From assembly GCA_963675665.1 (NCBI GenBank), contig OY776510.1:2400001-2464000 (forward strand): a DNA stretch of 64,000 bases, read 5' to 3'. This document shows positions 44,294 to 61,699 of this stretch, piece after piece. The notes beneath the pieces were generated by a model. That model did no database searches and was not told where the DNA came from. It saw only the letters and a program-made list of their open reading frames with translations. Position 1 is the first letter of the stretch. Every line of letters starts with the position of its first letter. This DNA comes from Spirochaetia bacterium. GTDB lineage: Bacteria > Spirochaetota > Spirochaetia > UBA9216. Made by a program: the position numbers and the translations under genes.

Positions 44294-44330
44294 AAAAAAA
44301 CCGAAGCCACCTGGCGGTGACCTCGGTTTT
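44294..44330 (-). terminator. Intrinsic terminator of the tRNA pair
   Basis: Minus strand reads AAAACCGAGGTCACC-GCCA-GGTGGCTTCGGTTTTTTT. Confidence 0.7.
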
Positions 44331-44403
44331 ACGTCCAAGAGGATTCGAACCTCTGACCTACGGCTTAGAAGGCCGTTGCTCTATCCAGCTGAGCTATGGA
44401 CGC
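44330..44403 (-). tRNA. tRNA-Arg(TCT), CCA not encoded
   Basis: GCGTCCA TAGCTCAGCTGGATAGAGC A ACGGC-CTTCTAA-GCCGT AGGTC AGAGG-TTCGAAT-CCTCT TGGACGT A. Confidence 0.97.
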
Positions 44404-44454: not shown

Positions 44455-44527
44455 TCGGAATGAGAGGACTCGAACCTCCGATTTCCTGCTCCCAAAGCAG
44501 GCGCCTTAGCCACTAGGCAACATTCCG
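44455..44527 (-). tRNA. tRNA-Pro(TGG), CCA not encoded
   Basis: CGGAATG TTGCCTAGTGGCTAAGGC G CCTGC-TTTGGGA-GCAGG AAATC GGAGG-TTCGAGT-CCTCT CATTCCG A. Confidence 0.96.
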
Positions 44528-60101: not shown

Positions 60102-60130
60102 CTGCCCGGATTGTGTATCAATCCGGGCAG
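60102..60130. terminator. Hairpin after the aldehyde dehydrogenase gene
   Basis: CTGCCCGGATTG-TGTAT-CAATCCGGGCAG. Confidence 0.6.
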
Positions 60131-60138
60131 GAGCAGTA

Positions 60139-61548
60139 TTACAACATGCCCTTGAGTACTATGGTTTTTAATTGACTCATTTCTTCAAGGGTATTGAGCA
60201 TCCCCTCGCGTCCGATTCCGCTTTTCTTGTAACCGCCGAAAGGCTGATCAAGCGTCCGGTATGTACCGTGACCATTAATGACGGTACAGCCGCATTCAAG
60301 CGCAGCAGCCTGCTGCAGCGCCCGTTTATAATTACCCGAGAACACCGCCCCCGACAGGCCGAACTGTGAAGAATTGGCAATACGAACGGCCTCTTCATCG
60401 GTTTCAAACCCTATAATCGGAAAAACCGGTCCGAAAATTTCCATATCGGTTGCTACACTGCATTTCGGCAAAACATTGGTGATAACTGCAGGTTTGAAAA
60501 AATTGTTCTCCAACCTTTCCCCTCCCCAGTAAAGCGTACAACCTTCCGAAATGCATATGTCAATCTGTTTCATAACGGTATCAAGCGCTGATTTACTTAT
60601 AATACATCCCAGATCACTGTCTTCATCGGCAGGATTAGTTATTCTGATTTTTTTCAGCCTGTCGACAAGCAAATCGGCAAAAGTGTCTTTCACTGAATTG
60701 TGTATAATAAACCGCTTGGGCGCGCAGCAGGTCTGTCCTGTATTCTGAAGTCTGCCTTCAATTGCTTCGTTTGCAGCAAGTTCAAGATCAGAATCTTCAT
60801 GGACAATAAAAGCATCATTTCCGCCGAGTTCAAGAAATACTCTGTGCAGATTCGGCGCCGCATTAACCATTATCCGGATTCCTACATCAGTACTGCCGGT
60901 AAGGCTTACAGCCGCAATGTCCGGGTTTGTAACAAGCCATTTACCGACATCTGCGCCGCTTCCCGATACGAACTGAATCAGATTCTCCGGAAAACCGATA
61001 TCATCGGCCAGTTCAATCATCATCTTTACCGCCAGCGGATTGGTGCTTGCAGGCTTAACGATTATGGGGTTGCCGGCGGCAATGGCCGGTGCAGCCTTCT
61101 GACTGTAAAGTTCCACCGGATAATTAAACGGTACGATGCATGCTATCGGCCCTATCGGCTCCCGGACTGTATAGATGATATCGCTTTCGATTCCGGGCTG
61201 CGACTGGGGAAGGACTTCCGAGTACATATGTTTTATACGCTCGGCGTATCCCTCAAAAATGCGTGCTGCAACATCTGCCTCGCCGCGGCATTCGGTTATC
61301 CGTTTTCCCATCTCAGCACACTCAAGCCTTGCAATGCTTTCCTGTTTTGTACGAATTTTGTCCGCATACTTGTACATAAGTTCCGCACGGCGGTATACCG
61401 GGACTCTCTTCCATTCTGAGGCGGCTTTGAGGGATTTTTGTACGATGCTCTGAATTTGAGCTTCGGAGGCGCGTGGAACGGATCCTACAAGTGATCCGTC
61501 CACCGGGTTGTGGACATTGATGCCGGATTCCGGCATAACTGAGTTCAT
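60139..61548 (-). CDS. NAD(P)-dependent aldehyde dehydrogenase (lactaldehyde dehydrogenase-like)
   Basis: IVPFNYP, KPAS, LTGSTDVG, LELGGND, NTGQTCCA (catalytic Cys), EIFGPV, PFGGYKKSGIGREG. Confidence 0.95.
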   Translation of the reverse strand: MNSVMPESGINVHNPVDGSLVGSVPRASEAQIQSIVQKSLKAASEWKRVPVYRRAELMYKYADKIRTKQESIARLECAEMGKRITECRGEADVAARIFEGYAERIKHMYSEVLPQSQPGIESDIIYTVREPIGPIACIVPFNYPVELYSQKAAPAIAAGNPIIVKPASTNPLAVKMMIELADDIGFPENLIQFVSGSGADVGKWLVTNPDIAAVSLTGSTDVGIRIMVNAAPNLHRVFLELGGNDAFIVHEDSDLELAANEAIEGRLQNTGQTCCAPKRFIIHNSVKDTFADLLVDRLKKIRITNPADEDSDLGCIISKSALDTVMKQIDICISEGCTLYWGGERLENNFFKPAVITNVLPKCSVATDMEIFGPVFPIIGFETDEEAVRIANSSQFGLSGAVFSGNYKRALQQAAALECGCTVINGHGTYRTLDQPFGGYKKSGIGREGMLNTLEEMSQLKTIVLKGML

Positions 61549-61551
61549 ATG

Positions 61552-61662
61552 AATCTCCTTTCCAATGAGGGAGGCATTGCTGTTTCCGGCAATACCCTGT
61601 CGGTCCGGTTCCCGTAGCCAGGCTGAAACAGCTGATCCTTAGGGAGAAGGGACTCGAAGATT
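61552..61662 (-). ncRNA. Moco/Tuco (molybdenum/tungsten cofactor) riboswitch-like RNA, P3-less (tungsten-type) variant
   Basis: Minus strand AATCTTCGAGT..CCTAAG..TACGG..GGACCGAC-AGGGTATTGC-CGGAAAC-AGCAATGCCT-CCCTCATTGGAAAGGAGATT. Matches the moaA-leader landmarks. P1 (AATCTTC/GGAGATT) sequesters the SD. Confidence 0.8.
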
Positions 61663-61669
61663 TTTTACA

Positions 61670-61699
61670 AGATTAATACAGGCATGCAGGCCATGTCAA
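61670..61699 (-). promoter_or_regulatory. Sigma70 promoter just upstream of the riboswitch
   Basis: Minus strand TTGACA-18-TAATCT, placing the TSS at about 61663. Confidence 0.6.

Follow-up and report, generated by a model that had tools for sequence, protein, structure and literature searches.

Why should an RNA of the molybdenum/tungsten cofactor riboswitch class precede the gene of an enzyme that, judged from its family, works without such a cofactor? The question is raised by positions 60139 to 61699 (minus strand) of a 64,000-nucleotide window, the whole stretch of DNA analyzed here, which comes from the genome of a Spirochaetia bacterium (contig OY776510.1, positions 2,400,001 to 2,464,000). 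This interval comprises an aldehyde dehydrogenase (ALDH) gene, its leader and a promoter recognized by eye. The leader is a genuine aptamer of the Moco/Tuco riboswitch class, in the form that lacks the P3 hairpin, and its closing helix contains the Shine-Dalgarno (SD) sequence of the gene. We argue that it probably lets the enzyme be made when the cofactor is scarce.

A P3-less Moco/Tuco aptamer contains the Shine-Dalgarno sequence

The sequence was compared by cmscan with all 4227 Rfam families. The leader matched RF01055 with a score of 61.5 bits (gathering score, 36) and an E value of 2.4e-12. This family is the Moco RNA motif of Rfam, currently titled Molybdenum/Tungsten riboswitch aptamer and also known as Moco/Tuco RNA. 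The match spans model positions 1 to 135 and is untruncated, and a whole-genome search returned the same match.

The initial annotation, made from the letters alone, had recognized the landmark sequences of the Moco RNA in this leader and had described it as having no P3 and a P1 helix that pairs with the SD sequence. The covariance match bears out the assignment. Read directly, the minus strand contains every one of the landmarks: CGAG, CCTAAG...TACGG, AGGG followed by a GGAAAC-capped stem, and GCCTCCC...TGGAAAGGAG. Both structural claims are also correct according to the RF01055 alignment, where the P3 hairpin columns are deleted, with only 'GA..C' left between P2 and P4, and where the two strands of P1 (AUCUUC and GGAGAU) are paired. 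The GGAG of the 3' strand is the SD sequence of the ALDH gene and is separated by a 6-nucleotide (nt) spacer from the AUG.

All helices (P1, P2, P4, and P5) could be aligned to the model, with a few noncanonical pairs flagged. P4 is capped by a GAAA tetraloop, and the CCUAAG...UACGG of P2 provides the receptor region, the 3' half of which is one position off the consensus, at a weakly conserved column. This tetraloop/receptor feature of the Moco RNA has been described (PMC2408646).

The ligand-free minimum free energy (MFE) structure, computed from the likely transcript start, contains P2, P4, and P5, and the weak P1 is not formed. This is the behavior expected of a ligand-dependent helix. The leader, the SD sequence and the AUG lie within 135 nt. 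Farther upstream, a -35-like and a -10-like element were recognized by eye (Table 1); the promoter scan made no call for this pair, and the -10 element fails the rule of the scan. The by-eye promoter implies a transcript start near 61668 to 61664, which would put the 5' strand of P1 right at the 5' terminus of the mRNA, with the aptamer beginning within a few nt.

An intact aldehyde dehydrogenase follows the leader

The PF00171 (Aldedh) profile matches the gene product with 484 bits, residues 9 to 463 aligning with profile positions 8 to 461, i.e., the whole domain. The motifs ELGGN, GQTC, EIFGP, and PFGG.K.SG are present in the alignment to PDB 3ek1, the top PDB match (320 bits), and the catalytic Glu and Cys are intact. 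The nearest NCBIfam models are those of lactaldehyde and succinate-semialdehyde dehydrogenases. As a member of the Aldedh family, the enzyme is predicted to be independent of pterin, metal, and Fe-S cluster. The terminator hairpin that follows the gene indicates that the unit is monocistronic.

A related strain has a contig that spans the entire locus; over 1661 nt, the two sequences show 21 differences. The leader accounts for a single one, in the variable P2 tip, and third codon positions account for most of the remainder. In a metagenomic copy that is more distant, the 266 nt that cover the SD sequence and most of the aptamer contain 2 differences, versus 23 in 595 nt of coding sequence. 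Gene and leader both look constrained, and the gene appears to be under purifying selection.

Table 1. Features of the ALDH unit, in window positions
Feature	Positions	Strand	Basis or remark
-35-like hexamer TTGACA	61694..61699	-	By eye; not called by promoter scan
-10-like TATTAAT	61672..61678	-	By eye; 15-16 nt past the -35 element
Moco/Tuco RNA aptamer RF01055, P3-less form	61539..61671	-	Covariance match, 61.5 bits
P1 5' strand AUCUUC	61656..61661	-	RF01055 alignment
GAAA tetraloop on P4	61583..61586	-	Sequence and RF01055 alignment
P1 3' strand GGAGAU, SD sequence of the ALDH gene	61553..61558	-	Sequence and RF01055 alignment
469-amino-acid non-acylating NAD(P)+ aldehyde dehydrogenase (Aldedh superfamily)	60139..61548	-	Start codon at 61548-61546
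Intrinsic terminator 3' of the ALDH gene	60102..60130	-	12-bp stem with 8 G-C pairs, U-rich tail

In the rest of the window, the Rfam search returned two tRNAs only, at 44330-44403 and 44455-44527 on the minus strand (73 and 65 bits).

The arrangement recurs in the class

RF01055 is present in 54 of 151 genomes of the class, which together have 121 matches. At least 4 of these matches stand directly upstream of an Aldedh gene, a count that draws on 150 of the 305 PF00171 matches, so that weakly scoring Aldedh neighbors could escape it. The four are found in this genome, in two genomes of genus g3 (G002 and G003), and in G049, which belongs to genus g7 in another family. The survey for further motif-fronted ALDH genes that the initial annotation had proposed was thus productive. 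A composite pattern, consisting of the aptamer 3' core, the SD sequence, and N-terminal NPxxG codons, was also run on 401 genomes of the class from 156 genera. It recovered the same four ALDH cases, from three genera, and no further one. A fifth match, in G071, was a chance match at an operon of ferredoxin and aldehyde:ferredoxin oxidoreductase (AOR) genes, not an ALDH gene. A link was also rejected for G102 and G123, where an ALDH gene lies about 15 kb downstream of RF01055 and opposite-strand genes stand between.

The layout with the SD sequence in P1 is common to all four ALDH-linked leaders. Moreover, several AORs are encoded in every other genome with this arrangement (6 in G002, 8 in G003, and 5 in G049). 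An Rfam scan of 19 ALDH loci (five loci from other phyla, 11 from other genomes of the family, and the three paralogs of this genome) returned RF01055 at two of them, both in genus g3 (G002 and G003) and directly upstream of the ALDH gene. Five relatives of the ALDH (43 to 44% identity), found by a related-locus search of genome contigs, have no RF01055.

The enzymes behind these leaders are not close relatives. The three riboswitch-linked ALDHs are mutually 28.5 to 37.7% identical. The ALDH of g3 is 31% identical to the one studied here and passes the cut-off of the aminobutyraldehyde dehydrogenase subfamily (NF010000, 637 versus 615). The leader of the window is 67 to 69% identical to the ALDH leaders of g3 versus 47 to 56% to the ten other riboswitches of its own genome, and the ALDH leader of G049 is closest (64%) to the neighboring riboswitch leader. 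Judged from these sequence comparisons, this points to an "ALDH leader" lineage in family f1, which today stands before two different ALDHs, and to another recruitment, separate from it, in g7, i.e., at least two independent recruitments. Since unrelated ALDH subfamilies appear to have been recruited repeatedly, what was selected is probably their shared chemistry, from aldehyde to acid.

The G049 locus adds a second unit. In order, it contains a promoter-like site, a P3-less RF01055 with the SD sequence in P1, and the gene of a 490-amino-acid ALDH; directly after these come a second promoter-like site, a second P3-less RF01055 (L051 3056-3177), and the gene of a 916-amino-acid protein. The latter scores 1586 bits with NF045668, for which the cut-off is 1100, and the solved aldehyde oxidoreductase structures of Desulfovibrio (PDB 1sij and 1dgj) are full-length matches. 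By this equivalog-level match, it is assigned as a molybdopterin-dependent aldehyde oxidoreductase (MOP) of the xanthine oxidase family, of the molybdenum (Mo) type. Through these paired riboswitch units, a cofactor-free and a cofactor-dependent aldehyde-oxidizing enzyme adjoin, each behind its own cofactor sensor.

Cofactor genes and other RF01055 elements of the genome

The genome (5.15 Mb, single contig) is rich in enzymes that use pterin cofactors. It contains 16 full-length AOR-family genes (AFOR_N), 4 xanthine oxidase-family genes (MoCoBD_1), and 1 dimethyl sulfoxide reductase-family gene (Molybdopterin), as well as genes for MoaA and two MoeA proteins. A genome-wide search returned 11 RF01055 elements. 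Two of them front tungstate-type uptake genes, one a TupA-like ABC system and the other a WtpA tungstate ABC system, and one is located upstream of a ferredoxin and AOR pair. The tungsten (W) and Mo genes on which the initial annotation made its proposal depend are therefore present. P3 is absent in 8 of the 11 copies, including the ALDH, tupA-like, AOR, and purine-operon elements. It is present in the other three (L023 by alignment, L029 and L030 by eye), one of which fronts wtpA.

Other members of this set were noted along the way. Five operons of FecCD/Peripla_BP_2-type ABC transporters stand behind RF01055 in this genome (L021, L023, L025, L028, and L029). Radical-SAM proteins are encoded in three of the five, and two of these proteins have a length of about 750 amino acids. 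The five copies and their radical-SAM partners suggest a substrate tied to the cofactor, not plain iron. At L027, RF01055 is followed by genes for a 503-amino-acid solute-binding protein, a protein with an Oxidored_molyb-like (molybdopterin oxidoreductase-like) domain, and a large permease. The binding protein is also found behind the riboswitch in G003 (L113), G002 (L114), and G004 (L115), with 42 to 51% identity. This type of unit is a conserved, uncharacterized member of the regulon.

A further P3-less RF01055 (78 bits; L022 295-416, which is G000:C1:3452594-3452715 on the plus strand of this genome) is followed by a terminator-like hairpin and then by a purB-guaB-purA-guaA operon. A second species in this genus likewise has purB behind the riboswitch (L112 in G006; 87% identity). 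The pterin cofactor is made from GTP. A purine/GTP-operon target is not listed for this riboswitch in the available text of PMC2408646, PMC11725836, PMC3766115, and PMC11672702.

The element in front of the ferredoxin-AOR operon of this genome (L024 6696-6815, minus strand) is overlapped at its 3' end by a match to TD-2 RNA (RF03162, 63.6 bits versus 48.7) at L024 6616-6714 on the plus strand. This match is the opposite strand of the hairpin-rich spacer of about 100 nt between the riboswitch and the operon. The "TD-2 sRNA" may be a reverse-strand reading of the expression platform of the Moco riboswitch. In G002, G003, G049, G012, and G071, one RF01055 each lies about 400 to 550 nt upstream of an AOR N-terminal domain, with a small ferredoxin gene between the two where checked (this genome and G071). 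The unit of riboswitch, ferredoxin, and AOR appears to be widespread in the class.

A probable translational OFF switch and its alternatives

In the mechanism that we propose, the metal-pterin cofactor, when plentiful, would bind the aptamer and stabilize the weak P1. The 3' strand of this helix is the ribosome-binding site, so that the ALDH would go untranslated while the cofactor is bound. When the cofactor is scarce, owing to too little W/Mo or too little pterin, P1 would open and the ALDH would be made. The enzyme would then be a cofactor-independent stand-in for aldehyde oxidation beside the 16 tungsten-type AORs and the 4 xanthine oxidase-family enzymes. Since the SD sequence lies inside P1, ligand binding is predicted to block translation initiation, which is the polarity needed for a cofactor-sparing switch. 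We infer ligand-dependent repression from this architecture, and likewise infer the identity of the metal and an overlap in substrates between the ALDH and the AORs. We consider it rather probable that the leader is a translational OFF switch through which a cofactor-independent aldehyde-oxidizing enzyme is expressed under cofactor scarcity, by analogy with the B12 riboswitches of metE. The initial annotation had put forward such a metal-sparing switch, and that proposal is supported in part. The computational checks that it suggested (the RF01055 match, the W/Mo genes, and further motif-fronted ALDH genes) all turned out in favor, and the polarity predicted from the SD sequence in P1 agrees with it.

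Several observations weigh against this reading. The arrangement is rare, being found in 4 of the 401 class genomes; it is a solution confined to a few lineages and is not general in the class. Among the 19 ALDH loci scanned, the three paralogs of this genome and 14 more distant loci have no RF01055. The ten other genomes of the family and order contain no ortholog of the ALDH (best match, 47% identity; within the genus, at most 34%). Among 5.8 billion proteins, the closest has 65% identity and is encoded on a 1.9-kb contig, the rest being at most 52% identical. A metagenome scan with the composite pattern gave 47 loci, and at none of them does the SD sequence precede an ALDH; the pattern requires an exact core and 75 to 105 nt from the SD sequence to the NPxxG codons and would miss variants, including the short-N-terminus type of this locus. 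About 14 of the 47 loci have a Moco-like RNA according to a home-made nhmmer profile, and at two of the 47 (L072 and L079), the pattern occurs by chance inside ALDH-like coding sequence. No NCBIfam equivalog matched the ALDH at its cut-off (the best, lactaldehyde dehydrogenase, scores 381 versus 650), and this gives no substrate assignment.

The metal is a further point of doubt. The P3-less subclass is reported to correlate with tungsten metabolism and W-related genes (PMC2408646), and the initial annotation had read the loss of P3 in this sense. P3-less copies do stand upstream of tupA-like and AOR genes here, in an organism with 16 AORs and both TupA-like and WtpA transporters. However, the element upstream of the WtpA gene (NF003196, 439 versus 355) contains P3 (L030 337-497), and the element upstream of the Mo-type MOP gene of G049 lacks it. 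Together, these two show that the absence of P3 is no clean W label in these genomes, and they leave the tungsten-specific interpretation unsupported. This is a warning against the use of P3 presence or absence as a clean Mo/W label.

The picture of "either/or" expression would also be weaker if the AOR and MOP genes are repressed by the ligand as well. The leader of the AOR operon in this genome (L024; G000:C1, about 1792000-1792314, minus strand) bears on this point. Its ligand-free MFE structure contains an 11-bp helix in which the aptamer strand that forms the 3' side of P4 and the 5' side of P5 pairs with the SD sequence and AUG of the ferredoxin-AOR operon. This model suggests an ON switch for the cofactor-dependent AOR. 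Against it, the extended pairing is absent from the g7 leaders, in which the SD sequence lies about 10 nt past P1. A two-way isoenzyme switch is a tentative proposal that we think possible but doubtful: one ligand would turn OFF the NAD-dependent ALDHs, through the SD sequence in P1, and turn ON the AOR and MOP enzymes, where an aptamer strand would compete for their ribosome-binding sites.

Other explanations share part of the OFF switch or replace it. The riboswitch could repress the ALDH as proposed while the enzyme belongs to a wider low-cofactor response and has a substrate of its own, as in a rerouted amino acid or polyamine catabolism or the detoxification of a particular aldehyde, instead of standing in for the AORs. 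In line with this, the three riboswitch-linked ALDHs are of different subfamilies, the one in g3 passing the aminobutyraldehyde dehydrogenase cut-off and the present one being near lactaldehyde and succinate-semialdehyde dehydrogenases; the g3 gene lies between those of an aminotransferase and an acetate kinase, and the RF01055 regulon of the genome is already broad, with purine genes and FecCD/radical-SAM operons. We nevertheless regard a wider response as unlikely, given that the recruitment of unrelated ALDH subfamilies points to a shared aldehyde-to-acid chemistry, not to one pathway, and that the adjacency of ALDH and riboswitch-controlled MOP in G049 fits isofunctional alternatives. The independent second origin in G049 argues against an inert leader, that is, a relic or a hitchhiker of gene replacement with no effect on the ALDH. 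Such a leader would agree with the accessory nature of the ALDH gene, for which the genus has no orthologs, and with the homology of its leader to one that fronts a different ALDH in g3. Yet the match has a full-model score, its conserved junction nucleotides are intact, the spacing from SD to AUG is exact, and the leader is more conserved in related strains than the third positions of the codons, all of which leaves an inert leader with very little credence.

The input or polarity might also differ from the one proposed, the aptamer sensing a metal-free molybdopterin or another pterin intermediate or acting as an ON switch via an alternative fold. The class itself gives some room for this. 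Direct ligand binding could not be shown for it (PMC2408646), the structure of the RNA was still called unknown in a 2024 review (PMC11672702), both polarities have been proposed for the Tuco elements of Eubacterium limosum (PMC11725836), and the P3 rule is not clean in the genomes studied here. A different input or polarity is improbable in our judgment, since the SD sequence in P1 with its 6-nt spacer leaves no room for an anti-sequestor and genetic work identified the Escherichia coli moaA element, of the same layout, as an OFF switch (PMC2408646). It is highly improbable that the ALDH is a conventional pathway target, with an aldehyde derived from pterin or the cofactor as its substrate. 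The one point in favor is that riboswitches usually control the metabolism of their own ligand, and no Aldedh-family enzyme takes part in any known step of Moco/Tuco synthesis in the pathway as given in the available text of PMC2408646. Moreover, three ALDHs that are 28 to 38% identical would need the same special activity, and none of the three is clustered with moa or moe genes.

Relation to known systems

The RNA belongs to a known class. It has the P1, P2, P4, and P5 helices and the GAAA tetraloop of the Moco/Tuco RNA (RF01055; Regulski et al. 2008, PMC2408646), as well as the CCUAAG receptor region and the GCCUCCC...GGAAAGGAG core. The expression platform, with the ribosome-binding site inside P1, is shared with the E. 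coli moaA element (PMC2408646), and the lack of the P3 hairpin is shared with the "Tuco" subclass of E. limosum (PMC11725836). In that organism, P3-less RF01055 elements are located on WOR1, tupABC, two Fe-type ABC transporters, and focA, and two operons of the terminator type rose under W limitation (PMC11725836). The genomic company is also similar, since tungstate transporters, AOR/WOR genes, and FecCD-type ABC transporters carry the element here.

It is the target and the proposed sparing logic that are new for the class. The Moco/Tuco regulon is described as comprising transport, biosynthesis, and cofactor-using enzymes (PMC2408646, PMC11725836, PMC3766115), and unlike these targets, the present ALDH would neither make, transport, nor use the cofactor. 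In the literature searched, with RegPrecise and subscription journals outside its scope, no Aldedh gene or cofactor-independent isozyme is linked to this riboswitch class. The available text of the same three papers, together with a term search of eight supplementary files, names no Aldedh-family regulon gene. A close parallel is that of the cobalamin riboswitches on metE and nrd, where the cofactor represses a cofactor-independent enzyme and the dependent counterpart is present in the same genome (PMC3766115). Table 3 of that paper, as available, has a category "Isozymes of B12-dependent enzymes" for cobalamin and not for MOCO. The present case differs in RNA class and cofactor and is much rarer; the isofunction of ALDH and AOR/MOP, unlike that of the B12 pairs, is deduced from the enzyme families and one neighborhood. 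The interchange itself has a precedent in Aromatoleum aromaticum, in which a W-containing AOR and a NAD-dependent phenylacetaldehyde dehydrogenase are functionally interchangeable in one anaerobic pathway (PMC6365974). The feature in common would be W-AOR and NAD-dependent ALDH as alternative aldehyde oxidizers, and no riboswitch is reported in the available text for Aromatoleum (PMC6365974).

According to the portions of the cited papers available, Moco/Tuco is one of the few widespread riboswitch classes without direct ligand-binding or structural validation. An ALDH under this riboswitch would add a "sparing" logic to the class and offers a simple single-gene reporter. In work on B12, such logic supplied genetic evidence on the identity of the ligand that ranks among the clearest. 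If the two-way switch is true, the ALDH leader would be a natural in vivo readout of the free W/Mo cofactor and would open a genetic route to the specificity for a ligand that is too unstable for binding assays. The riboswitch-ALDH unit of G049, beside a riboswitch-MOP unit, is a ready-made test system. For the biology of these organisms, the finding suggests how tungsten-dependent anaerobes may cope with a scarcity of W or Mo.

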